A stretch of 64,000 nucleotides of DNA from Pseudogymnoascus verrucosus. Its lineage: Eukaryota. Within the stretch, counting starts at the first letter, position 1; each line of letters begins with the position of its first letter. Below the pieces are notes generated by a model that was not told where the DNA came from, did not search any database, and saw only the letters and a program-made list of their open reading frames with translations. The position numbers were made by a program, and so were the translations under genes. Location of the stretch: NCBI GenBank assembly GCA_001662655.1, contig KV460255.1, one strand, 5' to 3'. Of the stretch, positions 19,849 to 28,845 are shown piece after piece.

Positions 19849-22250
19849 TCATCCCTTAAACGTAAAGCTCTTCCCCGGCCTCTCCGTCTGCAGCCTCCTC
19901 ATCCCCGTCGACGCATCCGCGCTCTTCTGGTAGGGGTCAAACGGTTTCTTTCCCCCCTTCTTGCCACCGGCGTAGTCGTTCGTGCGCTTCTTATTCATCA
20001 CCGACTCCGCCTTACTGTAATCGAATGGCTCCTCATCATCCTCCTCCTTCTTCGCTGTCGGGGACTCTCCATCCCCGCGCTTCGCAGCCTTAGCAGCCTT
20101 CTTCGCCGCCTTGCGCTCTGCTTTCTTCAGGGACTTCTCCTTAGCGGCGCCCTCGAGGGGTTCGTGGAGGGAGATATCGTATTCCCCCGCTTCCTCGACC
20201 GGTTCCTCGGCTTCCTCCTCCATATCATCACTCTTCCGCTTTCGGCCCCCCTTAATCGTAAAAGCCTTCTCCTCCTCCACCACCACCGGCTCCTCGTCCT
20301 CAGGTTCAGCGACGGGTTGGGCGAGGATACTATACTCCCTCACGCCCTCCGAGAATGCCTCCTCAGCAAGCGGCGGCAGCGGAATAGCAAGCCTAATATC
20401 CTCCCCCGCCTTCGTAAGCGTAGCCGGTTCCTCCCACGTACTGCTCCCGAACGCGCGACCCCAGAACGCAGATTGCGGACTCCTCATATCGCCCCCTGCG
20501 TCGCCAGAAAGGATAGTAAGGACGGATTGCCTGACATCCCCCGATGCCCTAGCGGATCGCGCGTTCGCAGCCGCCAGAGCGCCGACGGAATCGGGTTTCA
20601 GGACCTCCATCATACTCGGCCCGTCTTTTGCGTTCGTCTTCGCGGCCTTGATGAGTTCGAGGAGCTCGCCGGTTCGCGCTTTGACGTTATAGGAGATGGG
20701 GTGGACGGTGCCGAGGAGGGATGCCATATCTGTGGGCATCACCTTCGCCACGCTGAGGAGGGTGTGATTCGGCATCACGAAATTCGTACTATCGTCGTCC
20801 TGGCGGGCGATCTTATCGCGCCAGGCGTGCACGGCTTTGAAGACGGCGAATTGCTCGTTGTTGAGTAACGTAGGTACCTTCACGAGGGCTTGGAACCAGC
20901 CGCCTGGTCCTTTACCCGTAGCGGCGTTGTAGCGGGGCGAGTCGTAGCGGAAGAGGGACGTCTCTTTCGATTTCCTCAGTACGATCTCGAGGCGGTTTTC
21001 CTCGGCGGGGACGGGCTTGGAGCGCTCGACTAGCTCGTTGCGCATGTTGTCGTAGATGTAGAGGAGGAAGTGGGTGTCTGCGCGGGCGTAGAAGAACATT
21101 CCCTCGGGGAGCGGACGGATGCGCCAGTCGGCCATTTGGTATTTCTTGTCGGCGTCGAAGTCGATGAATTTTTTCAACAGGAAGGCGAGGCTGCCGCCGG
21201 CGTAGCCGAGGGCTTTGCACGCGTGGTTGGTGTCGAAGAGGCCTACGATGTAGAGGCCTAGGTCGCGTTGGAGCCAGAGGATGTCCATGAATGCTCCGTG
21301 GAGGACTTTGAGGATTTTGGGATCGGTGAAGACTTCGTTGAGGACTTGGAGGTCTTGTCTCCATGGTTTTAGTGTGTCGACGATCCAGTCCTTCTTCCGT
21401 GTGCTGATTTGCATCAGCGAGACGAGGCCGATGTATGAGCGCGCATCGTGGTGCTCGAGATCGATGGCGATCTCTTTTGCTGTTCTAAGCTCTGCCAGCA
21501 TCTCCAAGACGCCCTCGTATGTGTCGACGAAAGTCGCAGATGTCGATTCGACGGGGAGATAGGGTATCGGGTCGGCTTTTTGGTAGACGGAAGCTGGGTA
21601 TTTTAGCTTCTCGATTTCGGTTTCGTAGGGGTGGCGGTAGTGCTTTTGTTGGTGGTCGTCTGTGACGGGGCCGAGAGACTCCTCTAGAGGCACAATGGCA
21701 TGGGGTTTTGAGTTAAGCAGCGGTTTCCATGGCTCAGTCTCGTGGTTGGCGGGCTTGTTAAGGAAAGAGAGTTGGGGCTTGACGAGGTTTTGGGTGCGGA
21801 ATGAGTTATCCAGTCTTCTGGATTTCGGGGCAGAGGCCTAGTATACTTGTTAGCAATGGCAGAAGCAATTTTTGGAATTTCGTCGCATACATTTTCAGCT
21901 GGTGAAGCTTTTCTCTTTATAACGCCAGTGTACTCGTCGAGGCAGGTATCTGCGCGCTCTAGAAGCGAGTCCACCACGTCAACGACTCCCCGCCAATTGT
22001 TGTCGACATCGTCCACCTCTTGTAGTTCTGGCGCATTCGACTCCGTGAGCGCAGCAGCAGATTGAAGGATCGAGCTCGACAGGCCCAGCAGGCGTGCGTT
22101 CTGCTCGTCCAGCGCCGTGCCAACTTCCGGGTTGAGAGAGCGATGGAAGCCCAAGTCCTCTGCGGAGATTTGGCCGACGGTTCGTGTTGTGGAAATCAAT
22201 GCTGCTTGGATCGCATCCTGCAATGATTTAAACCCTGGCGGACCCTCCAT
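19849..22250 (-). CDS. RRP6: Exosome 3'-5' exonuclease Rrp6
   Basis: ATG 22250; intron 21890-21838. PMC2NT N-terminus, DEDDy exonuclease (IAIDLEHH, DILWLQRD, YARADTH), HRDC domain (WRDKIARQDDDS), Lys-rich tail. Confidence 0.95.
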
Positions 22251-22460: not shown

Positions 22461-22858
22461 ATGTCAGCGTCTTTGGCACCTGAGTGCAATGAAGTTAAGG
22501 AGTTAGTCAAAGAACTATTTCCTCTCAAAGATACATGACTGACGTGAAATTAGGCGCTACGATACCTGCTTTCTGAAGTGGTATAGTGAAAGTAGGCGGT
22601 CCTCGCCACCTTTAAGCTAACATGCAACTGACCTAAGTCCTCAGAATATTTACGTGGAAACGGCGCCACAGATGAATGCGCTGGGCTTTTTAAAGAGTAC
22701 AAGGCGTGCCTGACGGTAGCTGCTCCGCTGAATCTACGGGTTGTTCTGTATACTAACGGTGGCAGGGTGCACTGAAGAGCCGCGGCATTGACAAGATGCT
22801 CGCCGATGCTCGAGAGGATCACAAGGAGAATGACGCTTCAAATCTTCGGAGGAAGTAG
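22461..22858 (+). CDS. MDM35: Mitochondrial distribution and morphology protein 35 (TRIAP1 family, twin Cx9C)
   Basis: Four exons (introns 22502-22553, 22592-22644, 22716-22765) translate to MSASLAPECNEVKERYDTCFLKWYSEKYLRGNGATDECAGLFKEYKACLTGALKSRGIDKML...; missed by the ORF track. Confidence 0.92.
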
Positions 22859-23939
22859 AAAGACTTGAGTTAATCATGGGAACCCTGTGCTTGCAGGTCA
22901 TGCCCTTGTGGTTTCGGCGTTCAGCGCTATATACTGTACTATTATATTTGCAACTCTTCCTGGCATAGTCGAGCAGAATATTTAGACGGCGTCAAGGAGA
23001 TCTCGCCCATCATATCGAATTTACAAAACCTCCTATTCAGATCAAGGGACTGTGCTTAAGTTTGTATTTCAAGGGATGGCTGCTCCTTGCAGATAGAATA
23101 ATTTAACTGTTATAACCCGTGCAGATAAGATAATAGACAGTTGCTCCTCGTGATGATAAGATAATGAATAGTGAGATTCTGCATGGATGGAGCACATTAA
23201 CGATGGGTTGCAGATATGAAACATTTCCATACTCCGACAGGATTAGAATGTCTAGAAGGACCGCATATTACAGTGGCCCAGAGGCAAGAAACCGCCTGTA
23301 GACCCATCGCCGATACAGGTAAAATAAGGGCCATCATCGCTGCCTATAATTGTCATACTATCGCCTTTCAACAAGCCAGTTACTCAGGAGTAAACACAAG
23401 AAAATAAATTCCATTGACTTAAATTGCTACTATAAATTCTCACAGTGCTCATAATCACATACTCATCCCAACATGTAGTATCACTTGCCCGGTGTCTGGT
23501 ATCACGTGACCATGAAGCTTAAATTCCGTCACCCTCCTCGGCATCCCATTGAGGCTTAGCCGCGCGATGTGCCATTCCAGATACTGGATCTAGAACACCC
23601 TGGACTGTAATAATAGAATTACAAAGTACACACAGCCAAAACACCCGCCAACCCAGCATTTGAGGTCGCTGTTCATATCTCAATCATGTCGACTATCTAG
23701 TTTACTGTTTGATCTTTCTGCTCTTCGTCGTCACGGCGTAATCAACCATTAATTACTTCTCTGTTTACCTCTTCAACCACTCACTGTCCTCTCAGAGCGC
23801 AGAGCTCCTGCCGCCCGACAAAAGCCAGCAACCCTTGCTCGTCCCCACGATCGACCTGCGCTGTTCCATTCCGTGATACCAATGCGCCATTGTTTGCTCG
23901 TCGGAATATTATCCCATGATCCAGCAATAGAGCTGCTTC

Positions 23940-24325
23940 ATGCCCTCTTTCTCCGTCCTAACTTTTGGCATCTTCGTAGCCGGCTACATCACAGCTAGGT
24001 GGGATCTGGTCACTCGACTTCATGAGCTTGCCATTTTTGCCTGGGACCACGGAGTTATTGTACGTGTTACCTGCGGTTCCTGGCTGTGATTATCTGGCTG
24101 ACCATGTTCACTATCAGACTCGAACTGCAAAGGGCGTTGCGATCCTCTCGTTGTTTTTCTTCCTCTTCATAATACCAGTGGACAGACTCGCACACAGGGA
24201 GGCCAGCTTGGTATAACAATTTCCCCCTTGACAAGACATTCACGCGCTAAACAATATAGCATCCGCGATCAACTAATACCGGCATCTCGGCGCGCGAACA
24301 ACTTCGAAGACGGGGCTCCTTCTGA
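23940..24325 (+). CDS. Small 92-aa predicted membrane protein encoded immediately upstream of GPI1
   Basis: Exons 23940-24059, 24118-24210, 24260-24325 joined by two phase-0 GT-AG introns with branch points (GCTGAC, GCTAAA). Two hydrophobic segments; TGA is 16 nt before the GPI1 ATG. Confidence 0.75.
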
Positions 24326-24341
24326 GGAACGATCGGCTGTC

Positions 24342-26587
24342 ATGCTGGAGCATGATGGCTTGATGAGAATCTTCTGGCCGGTGGATATTCCTAGGTCAGA
24401 TTCACCAGGTGTAATAGTGGGATGGAAGAATTCAGACCTCGATGTCCTGGTTGTGGCCATACTCGAAGATGTCGAGGTTCGGAATGTGGAGAATGCGCTG
24501 AGAGTCGCAACCCTCTTTCGCGGCGCAGACCATAGCATCGAACGGATATACGAATTATGTGGGCTTCCTGCGATGCATGTGCTCGGCACAGTCAACTCCA
24601 ATGCACCGACGGAACCCTACCAGATAAATGCTGAAATATCACTACAAGGTTTAGCGCCGCGCATTTCATGCGCGAAGGCACAAACCATACAAGTCATTAT
24701 GTTCGACAGACCACTTCCAGGGAGGATGCAATACATATCACTTTCGCCAATATTATTAGCCCTGGGAGACAAGACGGAGCAGATACTGGGCGGCATAGAT
24801 GCCGAGGATGAGAAGGCAGAAGCAGCGAAACGACAACGAGAGCAAGAGTTGGTGGAAAAGTTGAAGCTACATACGGTGACGAAACATCAACCTTCGGCGA
24901 AAGAGCTTGCTCTACCTCGAATTGTGAACCAGATAAATTTCGCTTGGGAATTGGAGAAACTACTACAGAAAAATATATCCCTGGTTGGCACTCGGCGACG
25001 GAGAACTTTGAGTGTCTCCGAACGTGTCATCGAGTCTGCTTCAACAATGAGGGATTATGTTATCGACGCCATATGGCGGCTGATAACTGTTTACATCTAC
25101 CCAATCATCCGAACTAGCTTTGTAATAGCTCTGCTGTGGCACAGGGCAGCCGCAGAACTTTTTCTGGTGCTCCTTGAATACAGGCTCAGGCCCGAGTATG
25201 CTGCGCTTAAAGACATATCTGCGACTGCCCAACAGGTTGAGATCCGACTTCTACAGTTTTGCTACTGGCCCATGCAATATGTAATGTTGAGGAAAAGAAA
25301 AGATGACTGGCAGAGTATCGCGAAAAGCCACGCCGATTACATACGGTTTTACAACAGTCTGTGGCTTGTTGCAAACGATGTCATTATTGGCATCGCAATT
25401 GGTTCTGCCATCATTGACAATGCAGACTGGCTCGCCGAACAGATTAGTGATGTGTTGGGCACATACACTGTGACATCGTTGCAGCAGACGATATCATGGC
25501 TCATGGACTGGCCAGCTGGACTGAAATTGAACAATGAGTTGGCTCAATTCCTTGGTGACCTTTTCCTCTGGGTCATTGATTACTGGTCAAGCTGTGTCGA
25601 CGTTCTCCGGCCCATCCTACCCCACCTCATATGGTTCATCGGATTCTCAAGCTTTGCTGGCGCCAGCATGCCAATTGCTCTCTTTTCCGACTTTGTATCG
25701 CTCCTTACGATACACATCTACTCCTTTTATATCGCATCAGCCAAGATCTTCCACTGGCAACTCACAATCATCCTCTCGCTCTTTCACCTCTTCCGTGGCA
25801 AGAAACACAATGTTCTCCGTAAACGCATTGATTCCTGCGACTACGACCTCGATCAATTGCTCCTGGGCACGATTCTATTCACACTCCTCTTCTTCCTCCT
25901 CCCGACTGTCATAGTATTCTATCTCACGTTTGCCATTGCGCGCATGAGTATTATCAGTCTCAAAGCCGTACTTGATACGGCGCTAGCCTGTTTAAATCAT
26001 TTCCCTCTGTTCGCCCTGATGCTGCGGTTTAAGGATTCCCAGCGCCTGCCAGGTAAGCAGCCATTCATTAGATATTGCTGTCATAACATTGCTAACACAC
26101 ATTAGGCGGTATACGATTTGAACTCCGAGATACCAATAAACCCTCCATCGAAGCGCCGCAACGCCCATATTCTGGCACCACTCCGCGCTCCGAGCCCGAG
26201 TCTCCCGATTCAGAACCGTCTCCCCCGCCACCAACTTCATACGTCTACCTAAAGTCGGTACCCCTAACGTTCCCGACCATGTTCCAGCAGTACTTCCAGC
26301 TCGGCTCCCGCATCCGCAAACACTACCTGTCGCCCCGCGTCCTGCTCTGCCTCATGACCGGCCAGTCTGTGCCGCCGATCCACAGGAAGAACTTGTACAG
26401 CCTGCAATATAGCATGTTACCCGCTCGGCGGGCGGGAGTCTGGGATATGTGGCGCGCGCTGACGGTGTGGCCGTCGGCGGCGGAGGGGATGAATGGGAAG
26501 GTGCAGAAGAGGGGGAGTTGGCCGGTAATGGGAGGTGCGGGGGCAGGAAGGAGAGATAGGTCGAGGAGGGGGTATAGTCACCATTAA
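24342..26587 (+). CDS. GPI1: GPI-GlcNAc transferase subunit Gpi1 (PIG-Q)
   Basis: ATG 24342 (MLEHDGLMRIFWP); intron 26053-26105. Motifs YIRFYNSLWLVANDVIIG, WLMDWPAGLKLNNEL, LFRGKKHNVLRKRIDSCDYDLDQLLLGTILF. Confidence 0.94.
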
Positions 26588-27010
26588 ATTGGGATGGGGG
26601 AAAGGTAGTATTAAATGAGATGGGATAAGTGAAGATTATACGCTGGGTGGGGTGGGATATTTGCATAGGAAAAGAGGGGTGTTTGTATATGATGTGCTAT
26701 TACAACTACGGTTGTACTACGGCATAAGAATCATAATGTTAATACGAGAAGGTTATTACTTCAACATCACTTCCTGTGCTTTGAGACATGATAGTCCGAC
26801 GTACTTGGATCTTATTGGTGAGACCTCATCTCATATGATGACACAAAACTACGACTATCAATTATATCACGCCCCACGCATCGAACCCCCTTCTTTGAAA
26901 GCTGTAGTTGTTATGCACTATGATATAAGGATTCAGCTCTATGGTATCCGAACCTCTAATATACATTAACATCCGCTTTTTCTCTTTTACATAATCCCAT
27001 CAGCGCCCGT

Positions 27011-28845
27011 TCATCTCCTTGGCATGCCTCTGCCTCTGCCCCTGAGCGCCCTCTGTGCAGCTCCAGGCGGTAATTGCTGGCCCGGTGCCTGCGGCGCCTG
27101 CGACTCCTCATTCTTGATCGTCTCATCCACGCTCAGGATCAGGCAACTAGCCTCCGTCGCCGCCTGGATGGCATTGATCTTGACGAGCGCGGGCTCCCAC
27201 ACGAACATCTCCATGTTATCAGCGATGCCCTCGTTGACGAAGTCGACACCGGCCCAGGTGCTGCCCTTGCGGTGCTCGACGCGCAGCTTGTTGAGGATGT
27301 CAGTCGCGTCGAAGCCGGCGTTGTCGCACAGCTGGCGCGGGATCACCTCGAGCGCCTTGGCGAACGACTTGATGATCGCCTGCTGCTTGTTCGAGATGCT
27401 CTTATCGGCGTATCTGTGGAGGTAGGCTGAGATCTCCATCTCGCAGGCGCCGCCACCTGCGACGATGGTGTTGTGCTTGATGGCGCGCTTGACGATCATG
27501 ATGGCGTCGTGCAGGGAGCGCTCGACCTCGGCGATGAACTGCTCGGCTCCGCCGCGGAGGACGAGCGTACAGGTCTTGGCCTCGGGGCAGTCCTCGAAGA
27601 AGTTGAAACGCTCGTTTCCGATCTGCTTCTCCTCGAAGCGGCCGCAGACACCGAGGTGCTCGGGGTGGATGTCAGAGCATGTGGATTGGATGGAACCTCC
27701 GCAAGCCTGGATGATGCGGTCAAGGTCGGCGGAGGCGACACGGCCAGCGCAGAAGATGTCGCGGTCGGCGAAGTACTGGGTGGCGAGATCTCCGATGGGG
27801 AGTTTGGAGAGGACAACCTTGGCGCCCGACTTGTACAGAGCCTCCATCTTGTTGTAAATGATTTGCCATTCGGCGTCGACAATTGCCTGGTATTCTGACA
27901 CTTGCTCCACCCTGACTTCGGCATTGTCCTTCTCGCTCTTCAACTCTAGCTCTACGTTGAGACACACAATCTTTGGGTTCTTGAACGACTTTGGTTGTTG
28001 CTCGAATCCAGCGTAAGAGAAGGTCTTCTTGAACGCAACACCGTTGACGAAGAGGGAATCGGTGAGGGAGCCACCTGGGATCTTCTTAACGCCAATGAGG
28101 TTCTCGTTCAAATCGTCTTGGTCCAGAGTCAGGACGGCATCGACAACCACTACAGACTGTATTAGCATAAATATTTCGATATGAAATCAGGGATACCCAC
28201 TCTTGGTGAAGAAGCCTGTGTTCCTCTTGATAAGCTTGCTGCTCATTGCTGTGCCCGCCAATTTGCTCAATGTGTCCCTCTGGTTGCCCTCGTTTGTGTT
28301 GACAGCAATCTCCTTAATCTTGTTGACCGCCATCATGCTAGCTCTTCTCAGACCCTTGATAATCGTCTGCGAGCTCACGCCCTGCTCCACATGTTCCTTG
28401 ATCTCCTTCAGGATCTCGCCAGCCAGGACCACGACGGAGGTCGTTCCATCTCCAACTTCGGCGTCTTGCGATCGCGCGATATCTGTAAGAATTCGGGCTG
28501 CGGGGTGAACAATATCTAAGAGCTATGATATGTCAGATGTTGTTATAATATGCCCTTGGCCCTTTCCTGACGCTTGCATACCTTCATGACAGTTGCTCCG
28601 TCATTTGTGATCGTTTGTCTGCCATTCTCGTCCACCATTAACAAATCCCCTCCGTATGGGCCCAGGGTGCTTCTGATGGTTTCTTGAACAGCTAGGCAAG
28701 CATTGATATTCGATATAACTTGTCCCTTTCCCTGCGACGAATCCGTTCCTGTACCAAATGTCAGCTAATATCCAGAGTAAGGAGCTTCAGGTGACATGCC
28801 CTCCTTGAGCACAATGATGGTCGGGGTCTGGCCACCGAACGACAT
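27011..28845 (-). CDS. CCT7: T-complex protein 1 subunit eta (CCT7)
   Basis: ATG 28845; introns 28799-28749 (GC-AG), ~28581-28523, 28200-28150. Motifs [59 protein letters not shown]. Confidence 0.95.

Follow-up and report, generated by a model that had tools for sequence, protein, structure and literature searches.

The human PYURF-PIGY transcript is listed among the characterised bicistronic transcripts (PMC13303939), and one of its two conserved open reading frames (ORFs) encodes a subunit of the glycosylphosphatidylinositol (GPI)-N-acetylglucosamine (GlcNAc) transferase. Here, we describe a fungal locus of related design in a 64,000-nucleotide (nt) stretch of Pseudogymnoascus verrucosus DNA (contig KV460255.1 of assembly GCA_001662655.1), hereafter called the window, in which a three-exon gene for a 92-residue membrane protein lies immediately upstream of GPI1. 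The small gene very probably forms one bicistronic unit with GPI1, and conserved bicistronic loci of eukaryotes are already known as a kind. As in the human case, two conserved ORFs would share each messenger RNA (mRNA), one of them encoding a transferase subunit. The order of the two is different, as the human GPI subunit is the small downstream ORF, whereas fungal Gpi1 is the large downstream ORF.

GPI1 itself has been described with a long ORF in its leader. In Arabidopsis, GPI1 (AT3G57170) carries a conserved overlapping upstream ORF (uORF) of 145 residues (aa) that is reported to be translated comparably to GPI1 and has been suggested to encode an independent protein (PMC13405301, PMC6380273). 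The plant and fungal loci have in common a long, strongly conserved ORF in the GPI1 leader, but the plant ORF is described in these sources as overlapping the main ORF and as a proposed frameshift candidate, whereas the fungal ORF ends 6-32 nt before GPI1. No plant match to the small protein turned up in our searches with the fungal sequence. For translation, the closest described systems are the bicistronic loci of green algae, for which leaky scanning is reported, along with an ORF 1 start in a weak Kozak-like context, an under-represented AUG ahead of ORF 2 and a conservation that spans hundreds of millions of years (Duenas et al. 2025, PMC11892635). We found the same three signatures, as that report gives them, at the fungal locus. 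The fungal locus differs in containing extra short uORFs, which are located before ORF 1, in the spacer (about half of the loci) and inside the GPI1 start (45 of 46 loci), and these indicate reinitiation as well as leaky scanning.

The GPI-GlcNAc transferase is described as containing small two-helix membrane subunits (PMC3184424, PMC11294708) and as cross-talking with Ras/cyclic AMP (cAMP)-protein kinase A (PKA) signalling in yeasts (PMC11294708). The fungal small protein resembles Eri1/PIG-Y, DPM2 and PIG-P, as they are described, in its size and in its two putative membrane helices; it differs from them in having no match to any Pfam family, and it is only a candidate member of the complex.

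Conservation of the small gene and its linkage to GPI1

The original prediction, which was made from the window alone, was a gene of three exons and two phase-0 introns that encodes 92 aa and ends in a TGA 16 nt before the GPI1 ATG. All coordinates of the small gene and its introns hold when checked against the sequence (Table 1), the introns are spliced out in contigs from public sequencing runs, and the spliced coding sequence (CDS) of 279 nt yields the 92 aa. The three-exon gene for a 92-residue membrane protein is genuine. The downstream ORF matches the Pfam family Gpi1 (PF05024, E = 4.6e-112, residues 296-571), and its N-terminus can be aligned with related loci from Met-1 onward.

A search of protein databases with exon 1 gave 869 matches, and those with names came from Leotiomycetes, Eurotiomycetes, Dothideomycetes and Sordariomycetes; the identity was 85-100% among the 120 matches listed. 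Many orthologues are exactly 92 aa long. Ten of them aligned without gaps and with a mean column identity of 83%, and residues 14-27 and the last five residues were invariant. At the DNA level, the 92-codon ORF was found again in 44 distinct loci; its introns follow codons 40 and 71, and some lineages have lost one or both of them. Two further loci (L040 and L046) have doubtful splice models, with the second intron at codon 89.3, and were dropped from the translation-signal, selection and clustering counts but kept in the 46-locus set in which the GPI1 start was scored.

Selection was analysed on 42 spliced 92-codon CDS, which form 861 pairs; 375 were usable, and in 486 the synonymous divergence (dS) was saturated or undefined. 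The median ratio of nonsynonymous to synonymous divergence (dN/dS) over the usable pairs was 0.09, with values of 0.06, 0.19 and 0.09 for exons 1, 2 and 3. The non-consensus fraction was 0.17, 0.06 and 0.47 at codon positions 1, 2 and 3, respectively. The small protein had a mean pairwise identity of 76%, and residues 1-45 of Gpi1 from these loci had one of 54%. Judged by these substitution patterns, the small protein is conserved and under purifying selection, and the recurrence in relatives of one 92-codon ORF with shared intron positions, 76% identity and low dN/dS is, by the same measures, far beyond chance. Conservation and dN/dS had been proposed as a check on the gene, and the gene withstood it, with orthologues in four classes of Pezizomycotina.

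The gene had also been called hidden, which proved incorrect: many genomes already have the 92-aa protein in their annotation, mostly as hypothetical and often, misleadingly, as PIG-Q. The ESM Atlas groups the family into two clusters, both called 'pig-Q', which comprise 159 and 58 ascomycete members. Public Gpi1 models of 712-892 aa (P0002, P0003, P0237, P0262, P0327 and P0355) open with the small-protein sequence; models of this kind with 751-892 aa come from Pseudogymnoascus, Microdochium, Neurospora, Daldinia and Fusarium, and the top matches to exon 1, which are 100% identical to it, are such fused models from Pseudogymnoascus sp. The fused models are artificial and represent a systematic annotation error across Pezizomycotina, to which we attribute the PIG-Q label on the 92-aa proteins. 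In open-access papers and bioRxiv, with subscription journals outside the scope, we found no description of the fungal small gene-GPI1 locus.

To describe the linkage, we used 80 loci returned by a scan of metagenome contigs. Gpi1 was found downstream on the same strand in 73 of them. The other seven contigs stop within the small gene or 2-83 nt past it; they end too early and therefore provide no counter-example to adjacency. The small-ORF stop is separated from the GPI1 ATG by 6-32 nt in 70 of the 71 loci measured and by about 63 nt in the other one. In L041/L042, L070 and L071, the GPI1 ATG precedes the aligned residue by one or two codons. The adjacency to GPI1, which was put forward for scoring with the original prediction together with the stop-to-ATG spacing, holds wherever it could be scored. 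The spacer lengths fall into all three classes modulo 3 (29, 25 and 17 of the 71 loci), which excludes a conserved readthrough fusion or a fixed frameshift. The order of the small ORF followed by Gpi1 is also present in the fused models of Neurospora, Fusarium, Daldinia and Microdochium.

Start-codon contexts, short upstream ORFs and spliced contigs

Translation signals were compared across the 44 distinct loci, which include the window; 42 of these have a 92-codon ORF and fall into 28 clusters when grouped at 80% nucleotide identity. Position -3 of the small-ORF ATG is a pyrimidine in all 44 loci (T in 40, C in 4), and position +4 is C in 43; the window shows the same weak context, with T at -3 and C at +4. 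At the GPI1 ATG, position -3 is a purine in 41 loci (G 32, A 9, C 2, T 1). A weak start at ORF 1 and a better one at ORF 2 hold across all 28 clusters.

The small CDS is also six-fold poorer in ATG than GPI1 (0.33 vs 1.96 per 100 nt). None of the 44 loci has an in-frame Met inside the small CDS, and out-of-frame ATGs number 0.91 per CDS, compared with 3.28 after mononucleotide shuffling and, by a marginal difference, 1.13 after synonymous-codon shuffling (P = 0.036). Each of the 40 internal ATGs has a pyrimidine at -3, and the ORFs opened by 38 of them terminate ahead of GPI1; the stretch from codon 35 to the stop contains just one ATG over the 44 loci combined. The start contexts and the scarcity of AUG are, as far as sequence can tell, those that would be expected for leaky scanning or reinitiation.

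Within the 70 nt that precede the small ORF, 37 of the 44 loci have an ATG, with a purine at -3 in 33 of the 36 that were scored. In particular, 25 loci have a uORF of 3-6 codons whose end lies 0-25 nt (mode 10) upstream of the small-ORF ATG; one additional locus has a uORF of 19 codons that ends 9 nt before this ATG. The density of upstream ATGs is 1.95 per 100 nt in the bin from -50 to 0, compared with 0.56 and 0.79 in the two bins of 50 nt that follow. The mini-uORF of the window is contained in two RNA contigs (X1 record 1 and X4 record 20).

The spacers of the 44 loci contain 24 out-of-frame ATGs, most of them with a purine at -3; 21 of the 24 are located at -8 of the GPI1 ATG. There is none in the 16-nt spacer of the window. 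Loci with the -8 ATG include L001, L002, L007, L009, L010, L014-L018, L024, L030 and L031. This ATG shares its frame with an ATG at +13, and reading from it would stop overlapping Met-1 or Met-8.

Inside the GPI1 start, 45 of the 46 loci have a +1-frame ATG at a distance of exactly 8 nt upstream of the in-frame Met-8 codon. The codon from which this ATG arises is NAT throughout (GAT 23, AAT 16, CAT 6, TAT 1) and never NAC, while the encoded residue varies among D, N, H and Y. The resulting +1 ORF of 2-3 codons stops on the Met-8 ATG in 36 of the 45 loci (UGAUG 28, AUGA 8). The pattern looks like a constraint at the nucleotide level and would suit a start-stop-like element. A search of positions 23500-24700 against Rfam at E up to 1 gave no matches.

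The RNA evidence consists of contigs assembled from the public sequencing runs X1, X2 and X4, which are labelled only 'RNA?'; from the GT..AG joints at the predicted introns, we infer that they are RNA assemblies. Four of the six X1 contigs match the window at an identity of 99% or more. The X2 and X4 pieces are mostly 90-95% identical and therefore come from a related species. The joint of intron 1 (24059>24118, GT..AG) was found in contigs of X1, X2 and X4, that of intron 2 (24210>24260, GT..AG, recorded as 24209>24259 with the cut at +1) in contigs of X1 and X4, and the GPI1 intron is spliced out in all three runs. The removal of both small-gene introns in public-run contigs settles a point on which the original prediction could have failed, namely that the two introns might not be spliced. 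X4 record 20 contains the mini-uORF, the small ORF, the spacer and the complete GPI1, and X1 record 2 (24259-24626) runs from exon 3 through the spacer into GPI1. Additionally, the 2669-nt locus L031 is 99.4-100% identical to the genomic locus L036 but lacks three introns (one of the small gene and two of GPI1). It comprises a 177 nt leader, the small ORF, a 20-nt spacer and a complete Gpi1 of 711 aa, and it is a second, independent RNA case with both ORFs together. L026 likewise lacks three introns that are found in its relative L046 (86-93% identity). Run X2 additionally shows a non-canonical skip of 59 nt (24377>24437, CC..GA), by which some of the GPI1 start is lost and the reading frame would be changed.

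Table 1. Features of the small gene-GPI1 locus in the window
Feature	Position	Strand	Remarks
Spliced RNA contig X4 record 20	23659..26712	+	2904 nt; all three introns removed
Mini-uORF of 4 codons (ATG..TAG)	23916..23930	+	Stops 9 nt before the small-ORF ATG; C at -3
Small gene, exon 1 (codons 1-40)	23940..24059	+	ATG at 23940; first hydrophobic segment and almost invariant amphipathic helix
Small gene, intron 1	24060..24117	+	58 nt, phase 0; GTACGT..CAG; CTGAC branch motif 16 nt before the 3' end
Small gene, exon 2 (codons 41-71)	24118..24210	+	Second hydrophobic segment
Small gene, intron 2	24211..24259	+	49 nt, phase 0; GTATAA..TAG; CTAAC
Small gene, exon 3 (codons 72-92 and stop)	24260..24325	+	TGA at 24323-24325; C-terminal motif SAREQLRRRGSF, invariant or nearly so
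Spacer from small-ORF stop to GPI1 ATG	24326..24341	+	16 nt
GPI1, exon 1	24342..26052	+	ATG at 24342, G at -3; frame differs from that of the small ORF
+1-frame mini-ORF in the GPI1 start (ATG ATG GCT TGA)	24352..24363	+	TGA overlaps the in-frame Met-8 ATG (24363-24365)
GPI1, intron	26053..26105	+	53 nt; GTAAGC..TAG
GPI1, exon 2 including stop	26106..26587	+	Intron removal gives a product of 730 aa

Upstream of the small gene, positions 22462-22857 on the plus strand look like an Mdm35/TRIAP1-type gene with introns. The start of this gene resembles the N-terminus of the Fusarium model P0355, which has PF05254 fused to the small ORF and Gpi1. This suggests a possibly conserved order of three genes, namely the Mdm35/TRIAP1-like gene, the small gene and GPI1. 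Two large neighbouring ORFs on the minus strand were judged by eye; 27011-28168 looks like the gene of a CCT/TCP-1 chaperonin subunit and 19849-21837 like that of an Rrp6-like 3'-5' exonuclease.

A proposed bicistronic unit and the alternatives to it

We consider that the small gene and GPI1 probably form one transcription unit with a bicistronic mature mRNA, from which the choice of start site yields both proteins; the single RNA molecule and the mode of initiation are what we infer from the linkage, the contigs and the start signals. In the proposed mechanism, the small ORF would combine a deliberately weak AUG with an almost complete lack of further AUGs, and in most lineages, a uORF of 3-6 codons with a strong AUG would precede it. 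The 40S subunits would either bypass the weak AUG or resume scanning past the mini-uORF, would then traverse about 290 AUG-poor nt, and would initiate at the well-placed AUG of GPI1. By analogy, the mini-uORF and the weak AUG may be read as a delayed-reinitiation device of the kind known from GCN4 and ATF4. The likeness lies in a very short uORF with a strong AUG, a nearby start that has to be skipped and a long AUG-poor stretch to the next start; the difference is that the skipped fungal ORF encodes a conserved protein and that the mini-uORF is present in only 25 of the 44 loci.

Several observations weigh against this mechanism and against a single transcript. The depletion of AUG is mostly at the amino-acid level and only marginal at the level of synonymous codons, and the loci in which it was counted are phylogenetically related. 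Seven of the 44 loci have no upstream ATG within 70 nt, ten have long uORFs (15-50 codons) that extend beyond the small-ORF ATG, and another has a 12-codon uORF whose stop overlaps that ATG. The leader of the window itself has a further upstream ATG at 23882, with A at -3. The ORF that it opens (23882-23998) has 38 codons, is out of frame, overlaps the small-ORF start and is located inside X1 record 1 and X4 record 20. The spacer ATGs would intercept scanning ribosomes, so simple leaky scanning would be insufficient in those lineages. On the RNA side, none of the public runs matching the window is on record as RNA, and the small-gene introns are largely retained in run X2. One contig of this run, which is from a related species, retains intron 1 at a depth of 137 compared with 63 for the spliced joint, and a long contig retains intron 2; such retention in the small gene would truncate the small protein. 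Short-read contigs may also join overlapping transcripts, and a contig that spans two genes is no proof of a single transcript; in a Zymoseptoria Iso-Seq preprint, RNA-seq assemblies are reported often to fuse overlapping neighbours, and true polycistronic molecules are reported to be rare. The earlier proposal that one mRNA encodes both proteins therefore stands in part: both ORFs are located on shared spliced contigs (X4 and L031, and partly X1), which could also arise by the merging of overlapping transcripts.

These limits of contigs and the Zymoseptoria preprint also speak for an explanation by two overlapping monocistronic mRNAs, in which the poly(A) site of the small gene would be located in or beyond the GPI1 start, the GPI1 promoter would be located inside the small gene, and the contigs would merge both. 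Contigs of X1 and X2 break at small-gene exon ends, as this would predict, but the breaks match splice-variant bubbles rather than transcript ends. With a spacer of 6-32 nt in 70 of the 71 loci, there is no space for separate signals, and two mRNAs would give no reason for the weak AUG of the small ORF in all 44 loci or for the single ATG from codon 35 onward. We therefore regard this explanation as unlikely. Another reading starts from the position of a conserved small ORF in the GPI1 leader with other short uORFs around it, and from the conserved-peptide uORF that is reported for Arabidopsis GPI1 as well (PMC6380273, PMC13405301): the small ORF could chiefly be a cis-acting conserved-peptide uORF that throttles GPI1 translation and whose product has no job of its own. 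All 92 codons are conserved, however, including the two membrane helices, and all three exons have low dN/dS; the length and the intron positions are fixed, and an AUG-poor body with a weak AUG favours the passage of ribosomes over their blocking. Stalling peptides are, moreover, usually much shorter than 92 aa, and we consider a chiefly cis-acting role improbable.

The fused GenBank models of 712-892 aa and the 29 of 71 loci with both ORFs in one frame could instead be taken to indicate that the small ORF is an N-terminal extension of Gpi1, produced by alternative splicing, stop-codon readthrough or frameshifting. This is contradicted by the conservation of the stop codon and of the invariant C-terminus before it, by spacer lengths in all three classes modulo 3, and by RNA contigs that use the canonical intron 2 and keep the stop. 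In addition, each fused model skips different residues, and an extension of Gpi1 appears highly improbable. A bicistronic unit in which GPI1 is reached by leaky scanning or reinitiation is the reading that we prefer.

Identity and possible function of the small protein

The hydrophobic segments of the small protein comprise approximately residues 4-19 and 47-64, and an almost invariant amphipathic stretch is located between them. Both segments, which had already been noted in the window, and the C-terminal RRRGSF are invariant or nearly so across the orthologues. The AlphaFold2 model (mean predicted local distance difference test score of 81) is all-helical, with helices at residues 3-18, 21-71 and 82-88, and does not settle the topology. 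The C-terminal PKA-type site is, as a sequence feature, only a motif.

Searches of Pfam gave no family for the three exons of the window, nor for five full orthologues at E up to 10. PIG-Y, DPM2, DPM3 and PIG-P were considered as candidate identities, and none of them came up in these Pfam searches; Pfam holds a PIG-Y model. Sequence searches of the PDB with Gpi1 and with a small-protein profile gave no matches in either case. In the ESM Atlas, only the clusters of the small protein itself were returned, apart from a bacterial cluster at 0.82 that we treated as noise. The small protein had not been recognised as Eri1 when it was first predicted, which fits the lack of any Pfam match. That it is a diverged Pezizomycotina counterpart of Eri1/PIG-Y nevertheless has points in its favour, namely its small size, its two hydrophobic helices and its linkage to a gene of the same complex, and the RRRGSF tail recalls the Ras/cAMP-PKA cross-talk that is described for Eri1 and the GPI-GlcNAc transferase in yeasts (PMC11294708). 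No Pfam family was matched by the five orthologues and no atlas neighbour was found outside its own clusters, which speaks against this identity. Eri1 and PIG-Y are roughly 70 aa long, and the small protein is longer than both. We regard the identity as doubtful.

For the function, our tentative proposal, drawn from the linkage alone, is that the small protein may be a membrane partner or regulator of the Gpi1-containing GPI-GlcNAc transferase complex; this falls short of being the expected outcome. The human parallel weighs against a functional link, since the PYURF-PIGY products are functionally unrelated, the upstream product being mitochondrial and unrelated to GPI synthesis. A more far-reaching version, which we offer as a speculation that is rather unlikely to hold as a whole, is that the small protein could be a Pezizomycotina-wide subunit or gatekeeper of the GPI-GlcNAc transferase in the place of Eri1/PIG-Y and that a three-tier start-site device could set its ratio to Gpi1. 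The tiers would be the mini-uORF, the weak AUG of an ORF otherwise free of AUGs, and the AUGs nested in the start of GPI1. Such a device could tie GPI-anchor output to the status of eIF2, and the RRRGSF tail could tie it to PKA signalling; the plant leader ORF could then be analogous or even ancestral.

The locus explains many public Gpi1 models that are approximately 80-170 residues too long, as well as the 92-aa proteins that are named PIG-Q. It provides a clean, deeply conserved example of a probable fungal nuclear bicistronic mRNA with readable translational signals, in which leaky scanning and reinitiation would be testable in model fungi. Fungi require GPI-anchor synthesis for their cell wall, and the pathway is a target for antifungals; its first enzyme is a poorly understood multi-subunit complex for which our search of the PDB with Gpi1 gave no structure. 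The small protein, which is more conserved than the start of Gpi1 and welded to GPI1 subphylum-wide, is a strong candidate for a missing component or regulator of this complex.

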